DNA of 20,000 nt from Catajapyx aquilonaris (Eukaryota): contig JYFJ02001744.1 in assembly GCA_000934665.2 (NCBI GenBank), positions 50,976 to 70,975 of the forward strand, given 5' to 3'. Each line of letters starts with the position of its first letter. Within the stretch, counting starts at the first letter, position 1. Below the pieces are notes generated by a model. It saw only the letters and a list, made by a program, of their open reading frames with translations. It ran no database searches and was not told the origin of the DNA. Of the stretch, positions 5,340-19,939 are shown in pieces. The position numbers were made by a program, and so were the translations under genes.

Positions 5340-5651
5340 ATGTCCAATAGTACCATCAACAAACCTCGAGAGAACGGGCTGGAGTTGGACTCGGCTGAAA
5401 AGGAACCGTGTTTGGACTCGGAAAAGGGTAGGGGGGAAGATGGTGAAGATGGGGATGTTGGAAAAGTGGACAAGTTGAAAGCGGCACTTGCGTTAACTCG
5501 AAAAGGATTTGTGGTCCTTGTGGTGTTGGCGGTGCTTCTACTCATCTTCTTCCTGATCATCATCATCATGGCTGCACTCTGGCCGGGAAGAGGGAGTGGT
5601 CACTCGAATGACATGTGTCGTGACCCGGCCTGTTTCGCCATCTCGGCCGAG
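5340..5651 (+). CDS. M13-like gene coding exon 1: cytoplasmic tail, signal-anchor TM (GFVVLVVLAVLLLIFFLIIIIMAALW), CRDPAC
   Basis: ATG 5340 (ACAATG) with in-frame upstream TGA at 5295-5297; basic RK before a hydrophobic run; donor GAG|GTTAGT at 5652, phase 0. Confidence 0.9.
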
Positions 5652-8600
5652 GTTAGTGGGATGGGTTTCTGATCATTGTTGTATTCAAGGCTTTAGTTTG
5701 AAAGGAAATAGGATCATAAAAAATTTGTGGATGCCAAATCCTTGTTTTCAATTCTGCACAGCTGCCAATCATTCTAAATTTTCTTGTGGCATATGGGCTC
5801 TGTTCTGGTAACCAGAAACAACTTTGGTGCTGAGATTGATAAAACCGGTTTCGATAGGTGCAGGAATGAATGTGTGGAACCTGTATGCCCTTGAGAATAT
5901 GCGCCTTCCCGCCTTTTACACTGTGTGTCTCATCATTCCGCTTACACCAGGAGTTACATCGTTGGAAAGTTTGTATAGGCTTTTCAACAGTGTGCTCCAG
6001 GCTAAATTTGAAGATAAGTTGACAAGCGCGAATTGTGAAACACACGGTATATAGTCAATGTTGACGAACATTTGCAATATTGCTGATAACGTGCGTAACT
6101 TTGCAAGGGGAGCTAATTTAATAGGTCGTATAATTATGCAACGTAAATTTGATAACTGTAACCCACGATAACTTTGGTATAACTTTAATTACCAGTGGTA
6201 ATTAGCTGATTAAACATTAATTGATTACAAGTTAGCCGGTGCCTAAACTACTCAGCCTATGTTGTTGAATTAATTACCCCACAGTTTACTGACTATAATG
6301 TTCAAACATGCCCAATACCCGTGTGAAAAAAAAATTCTGCCTAAAAGTAAGTGAACGACCCTTTATGCTACGGCGAACATTAAATTTGTTCTGGGTTATA
6401 AATTATAAATACGACTACGCCCCATTGACTAAAAATACTAACGGATGATGAACGGCCACCCACATTAAATCTGATTATACCCCTGTCAATTCGATTATTA
6501 AAATCTGCACAAAGATATATCTCGTCTGAAGATTAGTACCTCAAATGGCAGCCTTGGCCTATCATTGTCGACAGTTCCCATCTTTAAGGTCGTGCGTCTC
6601 CCTCCCTTCAAGCACTGCTTTATGACATCAAAGGAGACAGATTGGGTTTTAATCCACGCCACCGGAATCTCCCCCAGAATATTCTAAGCCAATCAAACCC
6701 GACCATCTGGAAATTTCCGCAGATGGAGATCAATGTCTCCTAATCTTCAAATTTATACTGTCCGACTGCTTGGAATCGATCCTTCGCTAGATACGGACTG
6801 TTTCTTCTTTTGTTGTGTCCACAAAAAAAAGCTACGGTGTCTTTGGCGCCCCAATGTACTATCTAATTAGAAACGGGGACATCATCTCTCTGTTGTGGTT
6901 GCTCTTCATTTGCAAGGTAAATGAGCAGAGCTGGCATCCGCTTTATGGCGGAGGAGCCATCAGAAACAGCTTCTTGGAAGCCAGGAATAATAATAAAAAG
7001 GTTATGTCCGGATGCTGAATGAGAAAGACTTTTGTTACCAGCCAGATGGTTCTCTGCTCCTTAAAATGGCTGGATACAATTTCCGGTCTGCAAATTACAG
7101 ATATTGATATCCGGATGGTTAATTAATCTGACGGGCGTCATATCGCAATGAGGATTCGCAGCAGTCGGACAGGTTTTTGGTTTGAGGCCAAAATGTGCCA
7201 CCAAAAATCTTCCGGCTCTTGAAATAGACCACTTGTCGAATGACTCCAGAGGCAGCAACTATCCAATCGAATCCGGACGTGCGTATATTTACATTCTGCA
7301 CATGTTGCGAAACATTATCTTCGAGAGATTCACTGGGTCAAGATGGCAGTTATGAAGTGTACAAAATCTTTCAAGTGAGGCATAAATTCTATTTCGGCTG
7401 ACTGTCAAGTGCTCGGTTTGGGCCTCCTCTTAATTCTGCGAAATTGGATCCAGAATCTCGCCAAAAGGGTCTTTGGCCCCTTATGGAAATTTGACGTGGT
7501 TTCGCTCCGGATCTTCCTCTTGTTGTGGAGTGTTGAAGGACAATGGCGCGTCTTGTGCCCCGTTAGTGAACCTGCTACAGAAAAGGCCAGTCTGGATCTA
7601 CTCGGTGAAGTGATTCTTCTAGCAGGTCAAAATCCTTGAAGTACTGTGTTTTCAACGGCTTGTGATGCATCAAATAGCTTTAATAACACTCTCAGTCACG
7701 TTTCTTCGAAAAAATGAACTTTATTTACATCTTGAAGTAACATGACTGACAGTGTACTCGAAGATCTGAAATGTAGCCAACAGAGTTACATTTTCCCCGA
7801 GATTGAAATAGTGGAGTATAATCGTTGAAGCGAACTTTCTGATGCAGTTAGTGCAATAACAAATCCATAAAGGAATGCATTTTTAAAAATAGGGGAAATG
7901 CCATTTTCAAGCTTCAAACACTCTTATACTCTAAATGACTCCAATGTGACTCTGATCGTTCTGCGTTGTCTTTTCTTGAAAAAGGGGCCATGCCCACCAT
8001 GATCGGTCATTAAAGCATAAAGCTGGATTGTAGTACAATTCTATAGGAGGAGAAAGGTTGTTTATTTTCTAGTGGTAGCAATTACGGTGGTTCAATTACA
8101 GCTGCTTCACGCTAGCTATTTATGGTATTTGGGGGCTAGATAATTATTTGCCAAAAATGGCATTTGCTTTTTAATTGAGTGTCGTGTGTAGGAAAAGTTA
8201 CAGTTCTCATTTTGTTTATTTTAATATACCGGTGACAGCAGTTTTTACACTGTACCGTATGTGACAGAGCCATTATTTCTGTACAGTACACCTGCACAGT
8301 ATCCATTTATATGACAGCCTGGCATGAATGTTTGCTGCGAAAAAAATTCAGCTGAAATGTTTGCCTGACTTTGAGTATATGACCCCACCGAACTGGTGTT
8401 AGCATAGGAAATTATTGAGTAAAAAGAAATATTGTTAGAGCCAGCCAATTACTACTAACTCTTATATACGCCAGCAGTGAACCTGCAAAACAGGGCCGCT
8501 TCATTTTGAATATTGAATTTTAAAAATTGATGACTCCCTAGAGTCAGCAAAAAATATCAAAAATGCAAAAGGGGCTTCGGAACGAGATAGCCCCATATTC

Positions 8601-11600
8601 AGCTAAGCTCCTAATTTATGTCAGGTGATCGAGAGCTGTAATCCCACCGAACTGGGATTTCATACCAAGCTGACAGCTTCCGATCCACAGCTATTTAAAA
8701 ATGAGCAGAATTGGTAAAAAAAATATAACAAAGCTTCGCATATTTAATTGACATCCCTGCAATGCTGACAGACCCCCTCAAAAAAATTCTGTACCCACCA
8801 TGCAACATATTTTTAGCTAATATTGCATCAGCTCTGCCAGAGAGTGGGCAGCCATGAATATGCGCGCCTTTATACAAGCTTTTCCCATCAAAATGCAATT
8901 TGTAGGTGGAAAGAGTGCACCGAATTGTCAGCCATGTAACGGTTAATTTCCTAGCTTCATTTACCCCTTGAATTTTTATGCTGTCACTGCAAAATTAGTC
9001 CTGCCATTTTTTTAAAACTATGGAACAAACTGCGTAGAAACACTGCAGTCACGTGTAAGCCATATCCAAGGCTACGTGTAAGATCGGGCTTTTAGATGGC
9101 AAAGTATCTTTGCTTGTCCCAGTTCTTTTGGCCCTCTACCTTTATCCGGATCTTCCGTTCAACGAGACGAGACGGGCTATTGCACAGCAGGAAGGAGCAA
9201 GGTAGCCCGACAAACAAACTTGGGAGTACAGTATTTAGGATTGCGGCACAGATTTAGTGCAAATGTAATTATCGAAGGACCCATGGAGGCTTCAACCCGG
9301 CTGCAAATTCCCTCGGCACAGGAAGGGCAGCTTTTCTCCTTCAACTAATCCGTCTAATTCAGTAGCAGGCGTGGTTTCCTCAGGTGGCGAAACGCTCTAG
9401 AATGAAACGATGCTATGCTAATAGGCCCTTCTGAATCCTACCCATTCAAAGGACATGTATGCTCTGAGACATCCTTTTCGAATCCAGCTTTGTGGGTAGG
9501 ATTACACATGTTAGGCATGTAAATACAGTAAGAAGACAGAATAATTCGGGTGCAAAGTTAGGTATTGATTTTTGTACGACTTTGCTCGTGTATATTCACA
9601 GCTAGAATTTCTAGAATTAATGAGCTCGGTGCGTGTTTTGATTTTCTAGAAAAATGTTAATTTTTTTCGCTGGAGCACTTTCAATTAATTTCTATTTTTC
9701 CATCAGCTTGTGCAAATATTTGCTCTTTCCATTCAACCTTTTTTTTTTACTTACCGGATTCATTTTTGTTGGCATAAGGCTATACACTCTGTACAGTTCA
9801 CATCGTCTATAAATGAACGAGATCCAATTTTGTTCGACATAATATAATTATACCCTGTTAGTCGGAAGCATTCTTTCCCCTGATACACATGACAGGTTAG
9901 AGTTCACATGATTACCTCTGAGTTATACTTATGTAATTGAAGGGACTGTAATTTTAAGACCTGCCAATTTGGCGCTTCCGTATTTCACTACCTTAATAAT
10001 TCTACGTATGGTATGTACTTGATGGTAAAATAATACGGTTCTCCAAAGATGTACCGAAGAAAAATATATGAAACATTGCGCGCAGAATAATAAGAGCATT
10101 GCGCCAGTAAACGATTCAAATCGAATCAAATCCCATCCAATAAAAATATCCTACGTAAATGCATGTCAATGTGCGTCTGATTAAATTAGGCTCTAACTGA
10201 GTTAGGGCAGCCAACTCATCCATTGAAATGGATTAAACTGAAATAAATTAAAATATCACGAGATTGATAGCACTTTTTCAATGTCACCGTCCCTTATTAT
10301 GCAGTTAAGGCTCAAGTGGACAGTGAGGCAGGTCCATTGCGACAGGGGGCATAACTCAATAATGCCACATCTGGAAAATGTCCGAAATGAAAAAAAAGGA
10401 GAGGAAGAGCAGTGCATCGAAGGTTGGTGCCTTATTGTCAACCAAGTTGTGTTGTGTGGAGGAGGATGTCCTCAATTTGGTGTTGGCATCGAGCCCAGTG
10501 GGCCCCAGAGGCACCAATTAGATCACCTTTTCGCCTTGAGTAATGGTTAAGGCTCAGAAGGGAGATGGACGCAATCATGCGGCGAAGACCAATTGCTCTT
10601 AACAACCTTTGCCACTTGGGGTCATTTTCAATGGCCGCCTGTCAAGGAGACTTTGTGCCCCCGGTATCAACACATCCCGACACTCCCTCAACAAACTACA
10701 GAAATGGGACTCAAAAGGAAGGAGTCTGGATTCTTCCAAAGTTTTATTGTCCCTGCTTTGAGGTCAATGACCCCGGAGGAACCATGCAGCAAATGCAAAT
10801 TGCTGTAAATTTCCCGTTGCATCGTACCAGCATGGTGCAGCTGCGACATTCGGACAGATTGAGTGGTCATTTCCGCCTGGTGACATGACACTCTTCGGGG
10901 GTCTATTAAATCATGGGCCCTCGCTTTGGTTTCGGCTAATGAAAATGTGAGCATGTCAAGTAGTTGGGAGTCGAAGAAGTTGGTCGTGTGCCATGCATAC
11001 GATGAATAGCGTCTTGAACGATGTGTGAAGATGCTGGTGATGGACCCACATTGATTTTTTGGCACGCGATCTTCGCGTATAGCAATTTAAGCAGGGTTAT
11101 TAGCTAAAATCGGATGATTTAAGCCGCACTGATTTTTTTTGCATAATCGGGTCTTCCACATGGATAATGATGCAAAAAATACACTTATTGTGCTTGCAAA
11201 AGCGGCGAATTAAAGCAGGCCCGAATGGACCCGAATTACCGATTCGAATAACTAACATGTCATTTTCCTCTGTGCAAAGTGGGAGTGGAGGATACTGCAC
11301 CCTTATAGTGCCCATTAAAAAGTTTAAGGTCCCCTTAATTAACGCTAAGATAGTAGACTATGTTTATTTTGGTCATGCTGCATTTAACAAAGAGCAACAT
11401 TGTCAAGGCTGGCTCTGTACTTCCAATTAGAACTAATTAACGTTCTCCTTTCCCTGTGAATACAATACTGGCGCATAAACGAGCAGTTCCGTCTCTTTAC
11501 TTCTTTTTTTTTTGCTATTTTCCTTCCGCCGATTCGCTACGAATTATCTGCCAACTTTCTTGAAAGCAAAGGCAGTTTCCTGGGTTCCATCAATCTTCCG

Positions 11601-14600
11601 ACCCCATCTGTTATTACCAGCCCTGGAATGTTGCCTTGTAACTTCACCTACTGACTTCGCTGTAGAACAGACCCAGTCCTGTCACTTTTCGCAATCTCCG
11701 TCTGTTCCTCGCCAAACAACATATCATTGCGGGAAAAACATATACGTTTAAAAAAAAGCATTCTTCGCCTTTCAGTTACTCCAAAGTGTCAATCACAGCG
11801 GAGATGCCTGTGAAGACTTCTGGGATTATTCTTGCGGAGGATGGATAGAACAGAATCCACTACCGGCGTCCAAAAGCAGATGGGATGTGTATCAAGAGAT
11901 CACCTTTGCCAGTAAGTAATTTAATCGCTGTACATACACACTCCATTGGGCCTGCATTCCTTGTTGGAAGTGCATTCACCCAAGTTAGATCCTAGAAACA
12001 AGTTCCTGAGATGAAACGTGCGCAAGATAACTTATATGCTCACGACTTGGACGCATGAATTATAACGATGAATTTACATAACTTATTTCATTGGGCCTCA
12101 TTACTCGAAGCATGCACAGAATTGCTTAAAAATGTAACGACTTTATTCGTCAAATTTTCACCAGCTGCAATGATTAATTCTGCTCCATTTGCAAATTTTT
12201 TTACAGCCAGAGACAAAATTAGATCTTTGATCAACACCGTCCCTTACCCGTCGGAATCCAGCTCTTTGAGTTGGAAAGTACGTAACTTCTACGAGTCATG
12301 CATGGCTGAGGAATATATTGAAACAGATAGGGACAAGCCTATCAAGGACGTCATTCGCTCTCTAGGTGAGTAACATTACTCTGCGAGATTATTTCCGGAT
12401 CTTCTGGCTGGGTCCAGAAACTTGGTGGGTGTGACGCGAATGGCTAAAATGTACGGGCCGAATGGGATCGATTGATTACGACCAAAATTTTCTCACCCTT
12501 GTAGGAGGATGGCAGATCCTACGAGAATTGGGCACCTTCGACCCTTTGAATTGGGAATTCATGCGGACACTCCGGGTGCTTCAAGCCGAATACAAAGTCG
12601 ACGCTTTTTTCAGGATTGAGGTGGCCCCCGACGATAGACATCCAGCCACAAATATTATCAAGGTAAGGAGTGTCTACAATTCAATTCCGACACGGAACAA
12701 CCGAACTAGATCGATAGGTTGAATGGCAGGTAGCAAAATCTGTGTGGCGGCTACCTGCCAATGATTGGATAGGTCGTTATCCAAGACGGATTTTACAGTT
12801 CAATAGAGCCCATTAGCATTACTAATAACACCTGGTTTCAGATTGTACCTGCCGGCCTGGGCCTTCCTGATCGCAGCTTTTATTACCGCCGACCAGACGG
12901 AATAGTACGTATAAACCTTTGCCATTATTCACACCCCACCAGCGTATAATTGCATTTGGTAACCTAATTCCATTAATTAGACTTACATTGTGGAGTGATC
13001 ACTGACTTGGCTTGTTTGCAGTCTCACATGAGAGGCCACTACGGTGAAATAGCAAGAAACCCGGAAAGGGTCAGTTGGAAAGCCTGTCCAGTGTAGTGTA
13101 CTGAACTTTGGTGCTTGACGTGTGCTTGTGTGTCGCATGGTTTTCAGATTTTGTGCCGCTAGAGAGTTAGTCGAATTAGTCCTGGAGCAAATAAAATTAA
13201 TTGGCCTGAGAGCACGTCCATTGTGTAGACTAACTGGTATCCAAACTTTCTGCGACAGACTCTAAACCGATTGTTTCTAAACAGGTGGCACACGCTTACA
13301 AACGGTACCTCAAGGATGTCGTTCAGTTGATGGGAGTGGTTAGTTCCAAAGCCAACCAATTCGCGGAAGAGATCTTCCACTTTGAGAAGCGAATTGCGGA
13401 GATGACGCCCAGCAAGGAAGAGACTCGAAGGCCTCTGCAGGTTTATCACCGCAAGACAGTCAAGGACCTCAAGAAGGAAGCTCCCTCTGTAAGTGCATTG
13501 CGACACAAATGTCAATGGATACACTCATTCGGATCTTGAACCTTTCAGATTCCGTGGAGGGATCTTCTTCTGGCCATTTATCCAAAAGCCAGCATCAACG
13601 AGGATACGGAAGTCTTGACCGTTTCTCCAAAGTTCCTGATTGGCGTCTCTAGGATTATATCGTCCTCTGACAGGGCGTAAGTAGTAAAGCAAAGTTCATG
13701 ATTAACTATAAGAGAGTAAGACCTACCAAACTTTCTTTCGAGGGAATTGAGGCTGGGGAAAGTCGCACTTTTTGATGTGTTTTCCATAGAACTGCCTTCC
13801 ACATGAATGCAGAATAATTTTGTGTAGCTACTAGCCGCACGTGTAAACTACAAAATAGTATCAGCCTGAGTAGTTTTTACAAAAGTACAGGTCAGCATCA
13901 ACAAAACTCAATTGTATAAAAATTTCGAACCAACTTGTCATTGCATGTGGAAAAATGATCTTCACAAAATGAAGAGTTTCGAAACAATGGATTGGTTGGA
14001 ACATATTGAGCCTGTTAAAGTGTTCGCTTCAACTGGCGCCTTTTCATACAGGAAAAATGGGTGCCTGATGGCGGCAGTAATTCACAGCCTGAAAGAACGT
14101 CGAAAAATAAGTCATCCAGAATGACTGCACTAATACGTTTGTCGCCCATCTCGTCAAAGACCGCCTATGTCACGTCCCTAAAACTAAATTAAACAATATT
14201 CACGAATCACGACCATTATGTTTTCATAATATAAACGTGGGAATATAACGCTTAAAACAGGTTTCAGTTACGACACACACAAAAGGTGTTTTCAGAATGC
14301 ATATTACATGGTACTTATACAAAAGGAACTTTCACGGAAGTTTGCTTTAAAAAACATTTGTACTACAGAGGAATTTGCTGTCTCATTCACAGGTTTACTC
14401 GTAGTAGACTCAAAACCTTGGTCGAGTAATGAGTAACTTACACCACTAGCTCTTAGGGCAATTGAGACTTTTAAAAATTCACTCTCGTTACTTTCAGCAT
14501 ATTTCTGTATCTTCACCTTCGCTTGTATTTGTGATGTCAACATCTCGATATGTTTTGCGAAAACATTGGCACCATAATTAGACTTCGTTATATACTGTGC

Positions 14601-17600
14601 AGTGCTTTCACATATGACGCAGTATTCATGCGTTGTGCAAATTTACTCGTGTCCGTCCCTTGAATAATTATCTGAAATCTGAATAGGGATGCTGGGCAGT
14701 TTGCGAATATGGATATGACTGTTGCCCATGGGTAGAATATACTTTCCCACTTATCTTGAGGCCTCTCTGTTAAACCTTTTTCGATACTAAAATTCACTTC
14801 CAAGCCAACTATTGGCTCTACCTGACGCCAACAGCCTCCGGCCCAAACTTGATCCGCGGTGGAAATTTACGAACTTTTTCTAGTATAGTTTATGCAGCTT
14901 CATTGCCTGGAAGCATCCAAATTGAAAACTGTGAATACCATACACAGCCTCCACCATCTTCTCCGAATTTACAGCATTATTTCATGATGAATACATCAAC
15001 ACTTTGCCAATTTATTCATCAGGAAAGGAGAACTTATTTCCCTCGTTTTCCATTATTTTTCTGGACGTATTCTGGACCTGTAAATCGCCTTTCCACAAAT
15101 ATTGTTAATAAATTTTGTTACTGTGCGTAATCGTGTGTGGAATATTTTAGGTGGAAACCACAGATATAGTACGAGCTAAGAATTAGTCAAATTTCCTCAA
15201 AATTAATTTAAATCAGAATGTTCTCAATCAAACTGGAAAATAGTTTCCACTATTTCTGCTAATTCCACCAATCCACTGCGTAATGAGAAATCGTCTATTT
15301 ATCTAGTAGGTTACATTTTATTCACTGTAAAATATTTACCTTGACGTGGAAATTAGTGTCACCTATTCTGTGTGTAAATAAATTTTTTTCCCCCAGTGAT
15401 ATAAACTGAAAAAACAGACAAATATTTGCAGTTTCTCTTTCTTTCACTGTCGTATGAAAGCAAAATATGGTTAAATATTCAATTAACTTATGTTCACCAC
15501 ACATTCACTCAAAATTTAACACAAGATAAGGAGTTTGCTTGTGCTACGTTGCATCATAATTTCTCTTAATTCCAGGTCGCTAAATAACTACCTAATGTGG
15601 CGATTGGTCAACGAATACCTGCCTTACCTGTCATCAGCCTATACTGACATACTGGACATGTACGAGAAGGACCTAAGAGGCAAGTGTGCTGACCTCGTCG
15701 GTATATAACCCTTCCTCTATAAAAGTGTGGCACGTTTCCCCCCACTTATGCTTTTACGTGCTGATGGAGACGGTTCTCTGGGGCATCATTCGCAGGCGTA
15801 GCTGAGCCGATGCCTCGCTGGGAGAAATGCGTGGAAGTGACGAGAAGTGTCCTGGGCTATGCTGTCGGGGTGATGTTCGCACGATCGATGGAAGATCGAG
15901 AAGACGCCATTTCCAGGGTAATTTTGGGCGGGAAAATCGGGCCGTTTCTCTTCCGTAACGGTTGCCTAAAGGGGGTCCTTGTCTTGCGCAGGTGGAGGCT
16001 GTGTTTGAGACCATCCGCGACACCATTGCGGAGGACCTGACCAGCAGCCCTTGGTTTGACAATGAACTACGAAATAGCGTCATTAACAAGGTGAATTGTC
16101 CATTGGCGCCGGGGGAAAAACTTGGTTAATTGCTCTTCTCTTCGCAGGTTCGCACTATGGAGATTCAAGTCGGATATCCGTCGCAGGCTCTTCATGGGAG
16201 CTTCTTGAGCAGGCACTACAGTTCATTGACGGTGCAGAGAAGCGACTTCTTTAGAAACATTCTGTATGGGGTGAGGTTTCAGAGAGAAGTGGAGCAGAGG
16301 AAGCTGTTGTATCCGTCAGGTGACAGTGGCTGGAAACCGTATCTGCTGAAGGATGGGATGACCTACATACCAACTGACAATCGCATTGTCGTTCCGGATC
16401 ACCTTCTCCAGCAGCCTTTTTACCATCACAAATACCAGCCGTAAGATCGTGTTACTAATTCATTATGTGGGACAAGGTAACAGGTGCTGCCGATGATAAT
16501 GGTGCAGCTGTATGGGGTGCATCGGAAAGGCCCTCTCTGTGTGTGGTCCCATTCCCCCCCCCCCCNGCGTAGCCGGAAATGTCCAGCAGCGCACCATTTA
16601 CTTAGACTGTATAATTGGGAGAAGTATACTTTTCGATAAGGTTGAAGATATTGTCGGCTGAAACATTAAACAACTGCAAGAATTTACTTCTTCAACGATT
16701 CTTCGACAATTGTTTAACAATGTTTGTAAAATTTTGTTGTAATTTAGTGTGGGCTTTGGAAACTAATTATTGGTTGGTAAGCCTAATAAACACCTTAAAT
16801 GCCAGAATTTACTGCATGACAGCAAGACTTCTGATAACATGCATTATACGTATGTATACATTTCAGTGTGTGGCGTATATAATTATTCCTTTGTATGCAT
16901 TAACACAACAAAATTATTATACTGTATAATAGATAACCTAACTTTATTCCGGTCGTATGACCAATTTGGGGTGGTGAACACGGTAATATGCTGCTGTAAA
17001 CCTCCACTCAATGTACAGAAAATTTGAGTTTGGTTACACTTCAGCAGAGGCTTTGTCGGATAGATCAGGCTATAGGCGAGATTCACGAGATTTACAAGGG
17101 TGATTTCTCATTTCAATGTGCAAAATTCACCCAAGATTTACTTGATTTTCCGGCTACACGTAACTGTAAAATATTCATTTTTATTTTTATTTTTATATTC
17201 CAGGCCTGTCCTGTACGGTGGCTTTGGCACGCAGCTGGCTCGACTCATAATTGAATCAATCGACGAGGGTAACTCTATGTACAATTCCGACGGTCAGCTC
17301 ATCCGGAACGAGGACATCCGAGTCAACCAAAGCCTCCGAAGCATGACCTTCCAGAAGAACTGCATCTACAAATACTACCTAAACAAGAACCTGGATAGCC
17401 AATCCTTTCTGAACCAAACTGCCAGCGACAATGCACTGGACAGCCGAGCACTGTCCGAAGCCCACCGAGCCCTCCAGAGAAGCGATGCCCCTATACTTAG
17501 GCAACCTGGAATGGAAGAGTGCTCCACCGACTACCTCTTCTTCCTGTCGTACGGTCGGGTATGTAGTCTAATAAAATTGCGTGTACCGTACATTTAAAAA

Positions 17601-17980
17601 AAAGTGTGGGACAAACGAATCTCCGTGGGACACAAACGTCAGCACCCTTACTATGGTGCTGATGAAATGTCCAAAACATTTTTAAAGCGAAATAGTTCAG
17701 CTATAGCCAGATTTAAAATTGGTAACACATGCTTCATTGCAGAGTATGTGCTCCTCTGTAACGCGGCAAGAGGAGGACATTGAGAGGACCATGAATTTCC
17801 ACATGGATAATCCCGCAAGGTTTGCCAAGTCTTGCTCATGAGTCTGGCTCCTTTTTGAAGTGCATTATCTATTTCAGGTTAAGGGGAACGGTGATGCTGA
17901 GCAGATCTTTCTCCGACGTCTTTGAGTGTTCCTATTCCTCCAACATGTACGCCTCTCAGTCGTGCGGACGCGCAATTTGA
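5340..17980 (+). CDS. Spliced gene (14 coding exons, ~770 aa): M13 family neprilysin/ECE-like type II membrane protein, predicted catalytically inactive (possibly Gone early-like)
   Basis: join(5340..5651,11776..11911,12207..12365,12505..12662,12842..12904,13285..13488,13549..13676,15576..15679,15796..15917,15992..16090,16148..16440,17204..17558,17743..17819,17878..17980) = 2313 nt, all phases compatible, no internal stop. M13 hallmarks: N-terminal TM, CxxxxC, CEDFWDYSCGGW, FYESCM, LGGW, LGLPDRSFY, NNYLMW, PRWEKC, VGYP, LQQPFY, YGGFG, LFFLSY, FxxxFxC. Confidence 0.93.
11776..11911 (+). CDS. M13-like gene coding exon 2 (LLQSVNHSGDACEDFWDYSCGGWIEQNPLPASKSRWDVYQEITFA)
   Basis: Acceptor cctttcag at 11775, donor A|GTAAGT at 11912; classic M13 C-x-DF-x-x-Y-x-CGGW motif; absent from the ORF track. 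Confidence 0.95.
12207..12365 (+). CDS. M13-like gene coding exon 3 (RDKIRSLINT...KVRNFYESCM...VIRSLG)
   Basis: Acceptor ttttttacag, donor G|GTGAGT; phases 1/1; FYxSCM motif. Confidence 0.93.
12505..12662 (+). CDS. M13-like gene coding exon 4 (GWQILRELG...APDDRHPATNIIK)
   Basis: Acceptor cccttgtag, donor AAG|GTAAGG; completes LGGW; phases 1/0. Confidence 0.93.
12724..12760. repeat. Perfect 11-bp inverted repeat in intron 4
   Basis: TGGCAGGTAGC (12724-12734) and GCTACCTGCCA (12750-12760), 15-nt spacer. Confidence 0.8.
12842..12904 (+). CDS. M13-like gene coding exon 5 (IVPAGLGLPDRSFYYRRPDGI)
   Basis: Acceptor ggtttcag at 12841, donor GTACGT at 12905; LGLPxRxYY motif; 63 nt, phases 0/0. Confidence 0.9.
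13285..13488 (+). CDS. M13-like gene coding exon 6 (VAHAYKRYL...FEKRIAE...KDLKKEAPS)
   Basis: Acceptor ttctaaacag, donor GTAAGT at 13489; AYxxY and FExxIA motifs; phases 0/0. Confidence 0.93.
13549..13676 (+). CDS. M13-like gene coding exon 7 (IPWRDLLLAIYP...SRIISSSDR)
   Basis: Acceptor cctttcag at 13548 (60-nt intron), donor GC|GTAAGT at 13677; phases 0/2. Confidence 0.9.
15576..15679 (+). CDS. M13-like gene coding exon 8 (SLNNYLMWRLVNEYLPYLS...KDLRG)
   Basis: Acceptor aattccag at 15575; NYxxW and PYLS motifs; 3' end at GC donor AG|GCAAGT (15680), with an in-phase alternative GT donor at 15701. Confidence 0.9.
15796..15917 (+). CDS. M13-like gene coding exon 9 (VAEPMPRWEKCV...LGYAVGVMF...AISR)
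   Basis: Acceptor attcgcag at 15795, donor AGG|GTAATT at 15918; PRWxxC motif; phases 1/0. Confidence 0.92.
15992..16090 (+). CDS. M13-like gene coding exon 10 (VEAVFETIRDTIAEDLTSSPWFDNELRNSVINK)
   Basis: Acceptor cttgcgcag, donor AAG|GTGAAT; WFD matches the M13 WMD motif; phases 0/0. Confidence 0.9.
16148..16440 (+). CDS. M13-like gene coding exon 11 (VRTMEIQVGYP...DNRIVVPDHLLQQPFYHHKYQ)
   Basis: Acceptor cttctcttcgcag (57-nt intron), donor CC|GTAAGA at 16441; IGYP-like and N-x-I-x-x-P...LQxPF motifs; phases 0/2. Confidence 0.94.
16554..16566. other. Poly-C run ending at an ambiguous base (N at 16566), intron 11
   Basis: 12 C followed by n; an assembly ambiguity or collapsed gap. Confidence 0.9.
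17204..17558 (+). CDS. M13-like gene coding exon 12 with the degenerate zinc-binding region (YGGFGTQLARLIIESID...TASDNALD...LFFLSYGR)
   Basis: Strong T-rich acceptor ending ttccag at 17203, donor CGG|GTATGT at 17559; aligns to neprilysin NYGGIGMVIGHEITHGFD, TLGENIAD and LFFL; phases 2/0. Confidence 0.94.
17743..17819 (+). CDS. M13-like gene coding exon 13 (SMCSSVTRQEEDIERTMNFHMDNPAR)
   Basis: Acceptor ttcattgcag at 17742, donor AG|GTTTGC at 17820; aligns to neprilysin WC...DVHSPGNFR; phases 0/2. Confidence 0.88.
17878..17980 (+). CDS. M13-like gene last coding exon 14 (LRGTVMLSRSFSDVFECSYSSNMYASQSCGRAI*)
   Basis: Acceptor ctatttcag at 17877 (58-nt intron); aligns to neprilysin GTLQNSAEFSEAFHC...SYMNPEKKC; TGA at 17978-17980. 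Confidence 0.9.
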
Positions 17981-18432
17981 AACAGTCGACTTTTTTTGAA
18001 CAGAAAGTTTTAAAAAAATCCCTCCGGGTGATCTCGATTGTAAATGTTCCCAGAAGAGCAGCTTGGATGTAAATATAGTCATTTACGCTTACTTACTATT
18101 ACTTGCTATTACAATATACACTCCGATCTCTGGACTATTAAAATTATATGTTTGAAGGACACGGTGCTGCCGGAGACAAAATCTATTTTTTGCTGGTTTG
18201 TTACGGAGTGGGAATGACCTGAAAGGAGGCGTGGAAAATATTCTCGAGGTGCCAAATATTTGTTAATCTTGTAGCTTTGCAAGCAGGAGGCGTACGGATC
18301 CATTTAAGCTCTATACTTCGCAAAGTATGTCTGAGAGTGAATGACGTTTTTAAAAAACTGAACTACCATTTTAGGTGTAGATCGTATTGTTAGAAAAGAA
18401 ACGGATTTAATATTTAGAGTATTGTGATGTTT

Positions 18433-18438
18433 AATAAA
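18433..18438 (+). terminator. Probable polyadenylation signal of the M13-like gene
   Basis: First AATAAA I found after the stop codon (about 450 nt downstream), followed by a GT/T-rich tract at about 18451-18470. Confidence 0.6.
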
Positions 18439-19939
18439 TGCAGATTTTAAGTATTATGCTGTTGTGATTGCATTTAACTTTAGCTCAGTCTATAAAGAGT
18501 TGACCTTTTGCTAATCGACTACATATTAACTTTATGGATTTATCATCCTTTCCCCGCCTACGCCCCACACTTCCATCATTTTCTCTGCGAGAATCTGAGC
18601 AGTGTTCTAGAATTTATGTATTCGGTCATGTGAAGTAACGAGGAAGCAAATCATTCTTACTGCTCCTTGTTATCGCTGGCATTGATAGGGCTAAGCCGTA
18701 ATGTAGAAGAAAGAAGAAATAACGAATCAACTTTATGGCCATATCATTCTGCTTTTGATTCACTCCATTCATCAGAGGGTTAGAGGAAGATGTGGATTAA
18801 AAAAAAAAACTCCAGATATGGTACCAGTTAGTAGAAACAACATTGAGAGAAGGGAAGAGAGAAAAAAATCATGGTCGCATTCAGTGATTCACGTGTCGTG
18901 ATTGTTGCTTCTCTTTACTGGTTGCGGAAGTAAACATTCAGTAATACCGTATACTTTGACCTATTCCCCTCTTGACCTGGGGACTTGGGTATTGAACAAG
19001 TTTGTATTATAGGCCTACTCAGAAATGCTAACCGCTGCAGTCCTCAATTCTTTATGTGACATTTATAGGAGCAGCCACCTGCTGGCACCGTATGCATGAT
19101 AAATCGCAGCCATTTGCATGGATGATTTCCGTGGGTTGTAACTGGTACAATGTGCTACAGATATTTTGCCGGATATTCTTACTACACATCATGCACTGCA
19201 AGATTTGTTTCTAAACCACGATGCGGGTGGAATTGTAATGAACAAGAAAATGTCTTGTAATGCATGAGAAAAATAATAAGGCCTGCAAAAATATTATCAT
19301 GTCTGGTCTCACTGTAATGCGGTCGAATGCGGTACAGAGATAATAATATTATGAAGCTAAGGAAGACGAATCAGTATAGAATGATATCAACTTATTTATT
19401 GTGAACATGCAATTAGGACATTAATCAACGGGTCTCCACGGGACTTCCGACATATAGCCTACTTCCTACTTTTCCCATAAGGTAATGGACCCATAAATAA
19501 ATGGTTTTTATGTTATGTTTGTGTGAATGCGTGGATGTCTTGTCAACATAATATTGTGATCCAACATCCAGAATTGGTGGCCTGCTCGTATCTTAAAATG
19601 TATCAATCATAAATTGTTTAAAAAGTCAAGCTAAATTGGCCGCTAAACTCCCCTAAATTTTTGGCCGCTTGAATTTATGTTATATTTTTGCCTGCCAAAC
19701 TATAAAACCGAAGGGGTTAACAATCCGTACGTAAATACAGTACGTAAATCGGTGTGCTCATGGCCACAAATCCTTGCATTAATTTCACAAATCCGGATAA
19801 CCATCTCACACGTCACGAATCCAGTGGCCACCAAAGTAGTAAGTTGCTATCAAACCAACTAGCACTGTCTGCACCTTAGACCATATATACCAGTAGACGC
19901 TCTCTCTCCCTCTCAAAAGTGAAACCTGCCGTTCTGAGG

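Follow-up and report, generated by a model that had tools for sequence, protein, structure and literature searches.

The question raised by this locus is what has become of a neprilysin-family (M13) gene of Catajapyx aquilonaris in which the zinc motif HExxH reads RLIIE. The window, which throughout this text means the whole 20,000-nucleotide stretch of contig JYFJ02001744.1 that was analyzed (positions 50,976 to 70,975 of the forward strand), had been read in an original prediction as carrying a maintained non-catalytic membrane protein, possibly a peptide-binding decoy, scavenger or co-receptor, and possibly an ortholog of Drosophila Gone early (Goe) in a little-studied lineage. The explanation that best fits the observations below, and that we hold to be probable, is that the gene is the sole Goe copy found in this genome and represents an ancient arthropod M13 pseudopeptidase.

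Gene Structure and Support for the Model

The gene model derived from the window comprises an open frame of 770 amino acids over 14 exons, from 5340 to 17980 on the plus strand. All exons below are taken from this model, with the additional evidence in brackets.

5340..5651, + strand: exon 1, with the ATG, cytoplasmic tail, transmembrane anchor and first two ectodomain Cys (hydropathy peak at residue 58; collinear with P0001)
5397..5414, + strand: EKEPCL, residues 20-25, in the cytoplasmic tail (pattern scan of tails)
5508..5582, + strand: type II transmembrane helix, about residues 57-81 (hydropathy; helix 48-73 in the P0001 model)
11776..11911, + strand: exon 2, with the CxxW motif as CGGW (PF05649, E=2.4e-9)
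12207..12365, + strand: exon 3 (Pfam, spliced contig)
12505..12662, + strand: exon 4, spacer lobe (Pfam, spliced contig)
12842..12904, + strand: exon 5, spacer lobe (spliced contig)
13285..13488, + strand: exon 6, spacer lobe (Pfam, spliced contig; single genome match)
13549..13676, + strand: exon 7, spacer lobe (spliced contig)
15576..15679, + strand: exon 8, its splice donor being GC (Pfam, spliced contig)
15796..15917, + strand: exon 9 (Pfam, spliced contig)
15992..16090, + strand: exon 10 (Pfam, spliced contig)
16148..16440, + strand: exon 11, with GMTY (16355-16366) in place of the substrate-binding NAFY (spliced contig, alignments)
17204..17558, + strand: exon 12, degenerate catalytic core (alignment, spliced contig; PF01431 only at E=0.0029, below cut-off)
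17241..17255, + strand: RLIIE in the place of HExxH
17427..17441, + strand: DNALD in the place of ENIAD (alignments)
17743..17819, + strand: exon 13, with the H711 equivalent at 17800-17802; the R717 equivalent straddles the exon 13/14 junction (spliced contig, alignment)
17878..17980, + strand: exon 14, coding part and stop (spliced contig)
17981..18442, + strand: 3' UTR, with AATAAA at 18433; the spliced contig stops at 18442

Twelve of the 13 introns are GT-AG and intron 8 (15680-15795) is GC-AG, its GC donor being backed by the spliced contig. This contig, a single sequence of 2,253 nt from run X1, omits introns 3-10, 12 and 13 where the model places the junctions (ten listed joints) and is contiguous across intron 11, so that 11 of the 13 introns are bridged; no differing letters were listed, and the RLIIE motif is unchanged. 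Run X1, which held 0.39 of the sampled words, is not recorded as RNA and may share source material with the assembly, and the search of runs for the sampled words returned no RNA run among the holders listed. Introns 1 and 2 lie outside the contig and are based on end-to-end collinearity with P0001, an ortholog with 86.5% identity across 770 columns in which SLIVE stands at the motif, so that it is dead too. The intact 770-residue frame with its 13 splice junctions, as originally proposed, is thus upheld by the contig for 11 introns and by the ortholog for the remaining two. Exons 12 and 6 each match the genome once, which makes a retrocopy unlikely, and GC at third codon positions reaches 0.604 in the exons against a GC content of 0.404 in the introns. 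Tako8 matches that came up alongside the neprilysin alignment were repeat-summed artefacts and were set aside.

The rest of the window offered little else. Its single N (16566), preceded by a poly-C tract in intron 11, leaves the coding sequence untouched. The first intron spans 6.1 kb (5652-11775), and four open reading frames within it gave no Pfam match when tested; the Drosophila goe locus is described as carrying five genes on the opposite strand (PMC4242634). Altogether, seven non-exon open reading frames of the window gave no Pfam match, and the window as a whole gave no Rfam match and no meaningful repeats.

Loss of the Active Site

The substituted motif (17241-17255, +; CGACTCATAATTGAA) encodes RLIIE as residues 606-610, and the surrounding YGGFGTQLA-RLIIE-SIDE can be matched to YGGIGMVIG-HEITH-GFDD of human neprilysin without a gap. 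The replacements H583>R, E584>L and H587>E, stated in the original prediction and borne out by the frame, the alignment and the spliced contig, remove both zinc-binding His residues and the general-base Glu. P0001 likewise aligns gap-free to the HELTH and HEITH motifs of ECE-1 and neprilysin. The alignments also revealed changes beyond those originally noticed: ENIAD is replaced by DNALD, with the third ligand changed (E646>D) and D650 kept, and NAFY is replaced by GMTY. The third-ligand Glu of ENIAD is present in 83 of 83 active M13 rows. Equivalents of D590, D650, H711 and R717, which together with V580 and W693 we take, in numbering and in role, to be active-site or cavity positions of neprilysin, are retained in the window protein. 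An alternative catalytic exon, which could have restored HExxH, was sought in all six reading frames of the window and none was found, the only HExxH in those frames being an out-of-frame chance match between stops at 17790. The roles of H583, E584, H587, E646 and N542 have been described (PMC2259306). Judging from these residues, we infer that the window protein would hold no catalytic zinc and have no cleavage activity.

Domain Architecture, Fold and Topology

Both M13 domains were recovered above cut-off in P0001 (PF05649, E=2.9e-96; PF01431, E=9e-21), along with exon-level Pfam matches in the window. Ten ectodomain Cys residues (93, 98, 116, 124, 181, 433, 646, 714, 754 and 766), whose intactness had been anticipated, are each found in 94% or more of the 85 active M13 rows, and the CxxW motif is present as CGGW. 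According to the hydropathy profile there is a single N-terminal anchor, as in a type II membrane protein; three of the four N-glycosylation sequons lie in the ectodomain. The fold was judged on P0001 as a proxy, for which an AlphaFold (AF2) model built from a 65-row alignment reached a pLDDT of 91.7, with target-normalized TM scores of 0.92 to ECE-1 and 0.88 to neprilysin (ECE-1: Z 41.6, rmsd 2.2 Å over 649 residues), an alignment holding active enzymes being one that favors this fold. The predicted structure agrees with the neprilysin fold. The window protein shares with neprilysin and ECE-1 (active M13 enzymes in MEROPS) the M13_N plus M13 architecture, the ten Cys, the CxxW motif and the fold, and differs from them in lacking HExxH, the ENIAD Glu and NAFY.

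A PF01431 search of the genome gave 31 matches, which fall at 12 further places; HExxH is kept at every one of them (L002-L017, on contigs C35, C71, C664, C1775, C904, C891, C5968, C1954 and C33 of assembly G000, two of the places being on C35 and three on C71). The window gene was missing from this list, and Goe orthologs are therefore likely under-detected by searches with the catalytic domain.

Relationship to Gone early

P0001, used as the query of an exhaustive search, brought up a list of 150 proteins; the 13 longer than 950 amino acids were left out of the alignment. When the window model was compared by BLASTP with 146 proteins, the 24 best matches all belonged to one HExxH-less clade. 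In a FastTree phylogeny of 139 rows, a first tree that omitted three partial rows, the model fell in this clade, comprising 39 rows with support 1.0 and divided into subclades of 8, 4 and 27 rows; species names were obtained for a subset of 30 proteins looked up. The named members of the first subclade are mites and a tick (Dinothrombium, Euroglyphus and Haemaphysalis) and that of the second is the centipede Strigamia, the chelicerate label thus being founded on three named rows and the myriapod label on one. The third contains Artemia, Portunus, Cyprideis, Caligus, Anabrus, Hetaerina, Frankliniella and Cacopsylla, as well as proteins named 'protein gone early' by NCBI in Agrilus, Bacillus rossius and the blowfly Lucilia. 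HExxH occurs in none of the 37 scorable rows of the 39-row clade, in which 36 different motifs stand in its place.

A second phylogeny was inferred with IQ-TREE (LG+C20 PMSF) on 62 hand-picked rows and 628 columns, with the motif columns removed to avoid grouping by shared loss. The arthropod clade was again recovered (21 rows, 100/100), the Lucilia protein joined the pancrustaceans (99/81), and the window gene and P0001 were placed among the pancrustaceans, outside a five-insect clade. The link to Goe runs through these NCBI-named dipteran, beetle and stick-insect proteins, in trees built without D. melanogaster CG9634, the protein searches having returned no D. melanogaster record. The Lucilia protein, whose motif EVLID has the same ends as the EAxxD listed for Drosophila Goe in a review table (PMC11266112), has a long branch (2.06) and 24% identity to P0001, and the function of Goe proteins may on this account have drifted.

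These observations make it very probable that the gene is a maintained non-catalytic ortholog of Gone early (Goe/CG9634/Nepl2). As an individual gene it is an expected ortholog, and a protein of an already-known kind; proteins of beetles and a stick insect, and a fragment from a crayfish, already bear the Goe name in NCBI annotation, and since annotation pipelines transfer the name, part of this orthology is implicit in the databases. The proposed Goe identity and the reading as a maintained non-catalytic membrane M13 protein are both sustained by the spliced contig, the BLASTP matches and the trees with the Goe-named sequences. The loss is not confined to a little-studied lineage, being common to the sampled chelicerates, myriapods and pancrustaceans.

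Drosophila Goe is, like the window protein, a type II membrane M13 protein without HExxH and ExxA/GD (PMC4242634). The two differ in motif (RLIIE against EAxxD) and in tail length (about 57 against 129 residues), and the window protein keeps the H711, R717 and D650 equivalents that most insect members of the clade have lost. The Drosophila Nepl proteins (Frma, Nepl15 and others) are also non-catalytic M13 homologs, described as mostly secreted, often arranged in tandem clusters and Drosophila-specific (PMC8223033); unlike them, the window gene encodes a membrane-anchored protein, has one copy found in the genome and is ancient, a comparison for which the trees included, among Nepl sequences, the Goe-named ones.

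Other searches were less informative. A word-indexed protein search with exon 12, by an insensitive method, returned one protein, and one with residues 400-764 of P0001 returned, besides P0001, 26 distant proteins with 21-26% identity; a profile search added nine animal proteins, followed by proteins at 23-28% identity that were bacterial where named. The ESM Atlas gave only generic M13 clusters for P0001 and for P0123, which gained no name from it. P0073 (RELPR) is near-identical to P0065 (HELTH) and probably reflects a mispredicted gene end instead of a real loss.

Age of the Loss and Deeper Placement

The distribution of dead members suggests that catalysis was lost before the arthropod radiation, so that insects, crustaceans, myriapods and mites would have inherited an inactive protein from their common ancestor. 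One Goe ortholog per genome, dead since the arthropod ancestor, is the simplest reading, with copy number checked in this one genome. In counts taken from a fast alignment, and thus approximate in divergent rows, chelicerate and myriapod rows keep R717 in 9/9, D650 in 8/9 and E646 in 5/9, and pancrustacean rows keep R717 in 7/23 and E646 in 3/24. From the retention of these residues in chelicerates and myriapods, HExxH appears to have gone first, with the rest of the active site decaying later; the window protein, with D650 and R717 retained, is conservative.

M13 non-peptidases have been described as Drosophila-specific expansions kept for about 35 million years, and CG9634 stands without a supported partner in the extracted tree text of the same paper (PMC2259306); Goe is the only M13 entry in the table of a 2024 pseudopeptidase review (PMC11266112). 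The literature searched, in which subscription papers were thinly represented and orthology databases lay outside the scope, held no paper on an arthropod-wide Goe group. Beyond the known cases, the analysis adds that the dead enzyme seems to be as old as the arthropods, that constraint has shifted onto its spacer lobe, that many members share a motif in the tail, and that dead M13 proteins form another clade outside arthropods.

In the IQ-TREE phylogeny, the arthropod clade lies inside a 37-row group (100/99) together with active enzymes, among them a hemichordate protein, a nemertean protein and P0123. The last, which we take partly by recall to be ECEL1-like (ECEL1/DINE), is catalytically intact and shares this clade with the window protein; its provisional label draws on LNAYY and on a G-to-C spacing matching G607/C760, neither of which is unique to it. 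LNAYY is given as an ECEL1-type motif in PMC2259306 and the G607/C760 positions of ECEL1 in PMC5683451; the spacing, found in 15 of 76 rows, was rejected as a marker because it is not diagnostic.

Also within the 37-row group is another clade without HExxH (100/100), with members from Branchiostoma, Owenia, Tubulanus, Haliotis, Gigantopelta and Sinanodonta, that is, amphioxus, annelid, nemertean and molluscs (P0066, P0129, P0140, P0151, P0233, P0234, P0236 and P0239), mostly annotated as endothelin-converting enzymes. In AU tests on 30 rows with a quick tree, an exclusive grouping of the arthropod clade with the ECE group (containing ECE2; ECE1/ECE2/Nep3) was rejected (p=0.0012), and an exclusive sister relation to P0123 plus P0055 (ECEL1-like, the identity of P0123 being provisional) was rejected at the borderline (p=0.045). 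The union of the two dead clades was absent from the free trees and not rejected (p=0.147); fast-evolving dead lineages can attract each other, which bears on the 37-row group. A single catalytic loss in an ECEL1-side M13 gene before the protostome/deuterostome split, yielding a bilaterian family of ligand-trapping co-receptors that would bind via the spacer lobe and would have a Cys-containing sorting signal in arthropods, is an improbable scenario on present evidence; if true, arthropod Goe and the HExxH-less proteins of amphioxus, annelid, nemertean and molluscs would form one undescribed bilaterian family. Separately, P0138 (REIIH, with ENIAD, H711 and R717 intact) groups with ECE2 and apparently represents an independent loss.

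Shift of Constraint and the Cytoplasmic Tail

In this clade the spacer lobe, and no longer the old active site, is the more constrained region, the reverse of the pattern in the enzymes. Mean pairwise identity in the spacer (residues 181-420) versus the core (561-680) was 0.356 versus 0.247 in 38 clade rows, against 0.259 versus 0.511 in 85 active rows and 0.307 versus 0.466 in the eight nearest active rows, and no other part of the clade's ectodomain changes as fast as the catalytic domain. The same trend separates the window model from P0001, which differ at 28 of 471 positions in residues 90-560 and at 50 of 208 in residues 561-768 (p=1e-10). The cavity positions N542, V580, W693 and H711 vary across the clade, W693 being found in 0/32 rows. 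The spacer residues F302, T364, S378 and N390 are conserved in the clade yet common to the nearest active rows, and part of the spacer signal is hence inherited, not new.

The tail sequence EKEPCL follows the form E-x(0-2)-[DE]-x-C-[LMIF] and also ExxxC[LMI]. Scanned with a pattern defined post hoc, after viewing the alignment, the motif appeared in 17 of the 28 clade rows that include a tail, in 1 of 5 neighboring rows and in 0 of 70 others, and it is missing from 8 of the 16 pancrustacean rows, Lucilia included. Its layout is close to that of an acidic dileucine sorting signal in which Cys takes the place of the first Leu, and, as far as the sequence allows, it may serve as a sorting signal or an acylation site. 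The sole neighboring row with the motif (EDKCL) is P0083 from Lineus; this protein keeps HExxH and has lost the H711 equivalent, and it may be a still-active relative of the dead clades.

Possible Roles and Alternatives

Taken together, the protein would be displayed at the cell surface free of zinc, its ectodomain would bind a partner, and the cytoplasmic ExxxC[LMI] motif might control sorting or acylation. Binding would take place outside the old active site, somewhat more probably than inside it, and via the spacer lobe (about residues 181-420), a preference over a peptide decoy that follows from the shift of constraint and the variable cavity residues. The spacer lobe also roofs the cavity in the neprilysin structure, and for this reason binding in the interior keeps some probability. 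By analogy with Drosophila, the ectodomain, acting from the cells that produce the ligands, might damp EGFR signaling, perhaps by capturing EGF: there, a small-wing phenotype requires the Goe ectodomain, which also suffices for it, Goe overexpression lowers dpERK, and EGF trapping is itself a proposal (PMC4242634). That this role is conserved in the Catajapyx lineage is a tentative extrapolation, which we rate slightly below an even chance.

Among the other roles considered, a decoy or scavenger would hold uncleaved bioactive peptides in the old cavity, shielding them from active neprilysins or competing with these. The fold, which the P0001 model predicts to be intact, the active M13 paralogs in the genome, and the retained H711, R717, D650 and D590 equivalents of the window protein (with R717 in 9/9 and D650 in 8/9 chelicerate and myriapod rows) are consistent with such a role, which has been proposed for the secreted Drosophila Nepl proteins (PMC8223033). 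However, the clade shows no conservation at N542, V580, W693 or H711 (W693 in 0/32 rows), R717 persists in just 7/23 pancrustacean rows, and the catalytic domain changes faster than any other part of the ectodomain, so that the decoy option of the original prediction is weakened to an unlikely one, even as its maintained non-catalytic protein stands. We give a similarly low probability to a partner-subunit role, in which the dead protein would regulate the trafficking or activity of an active M13 peptidase or another membrane protein, or take part in adhesion. The conserved spacer lobe and cytoplasmic motif would suit it, Goe is reported at germ cell-germ cell interfaces (PMC4242634), and such partnerships are a common pseudopeptidase role (PMC11266112), but the ectodomain has no conserved unpaired Cys for a covalent dimer, C699 being absent from P0001.

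Far less credit is due to a residual or rebuilt metal site, in which E610, D613, D668 and D672 would bind metal and permit weak hydrolysis. These four acidic residues do occupy ligand-adjacent positions, and P0001 has three of them, but the general base is gone (E584>L), Glu at position 610 occurs in 4 of 36 clade rows, and 36 motifs occur in 37 rows. Least credible of all is a decaying pseudogene or an assembly error: the fast divergence of the catalytic domain, a point with nothing specific to it, is outweighed by the spliced contig identical at the motif, the 14-exon open frame, the codon-position bias and the dead orthologs across Arthropoda.

The reading as a maintained, non-catalytic Goe ortholog has three consequences. 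The arthropod-wide conservation of a dead M13 enzyme would point to a conserved developmental role. The EGF-trapping idea becomes testable by cross-species rescue and by mutation of the conserved spacer residues. Additionally, many entries named 'endothelin-converting enzyme' in mites, ticks, crustaceans and insects would be misnamed non-enzymes.
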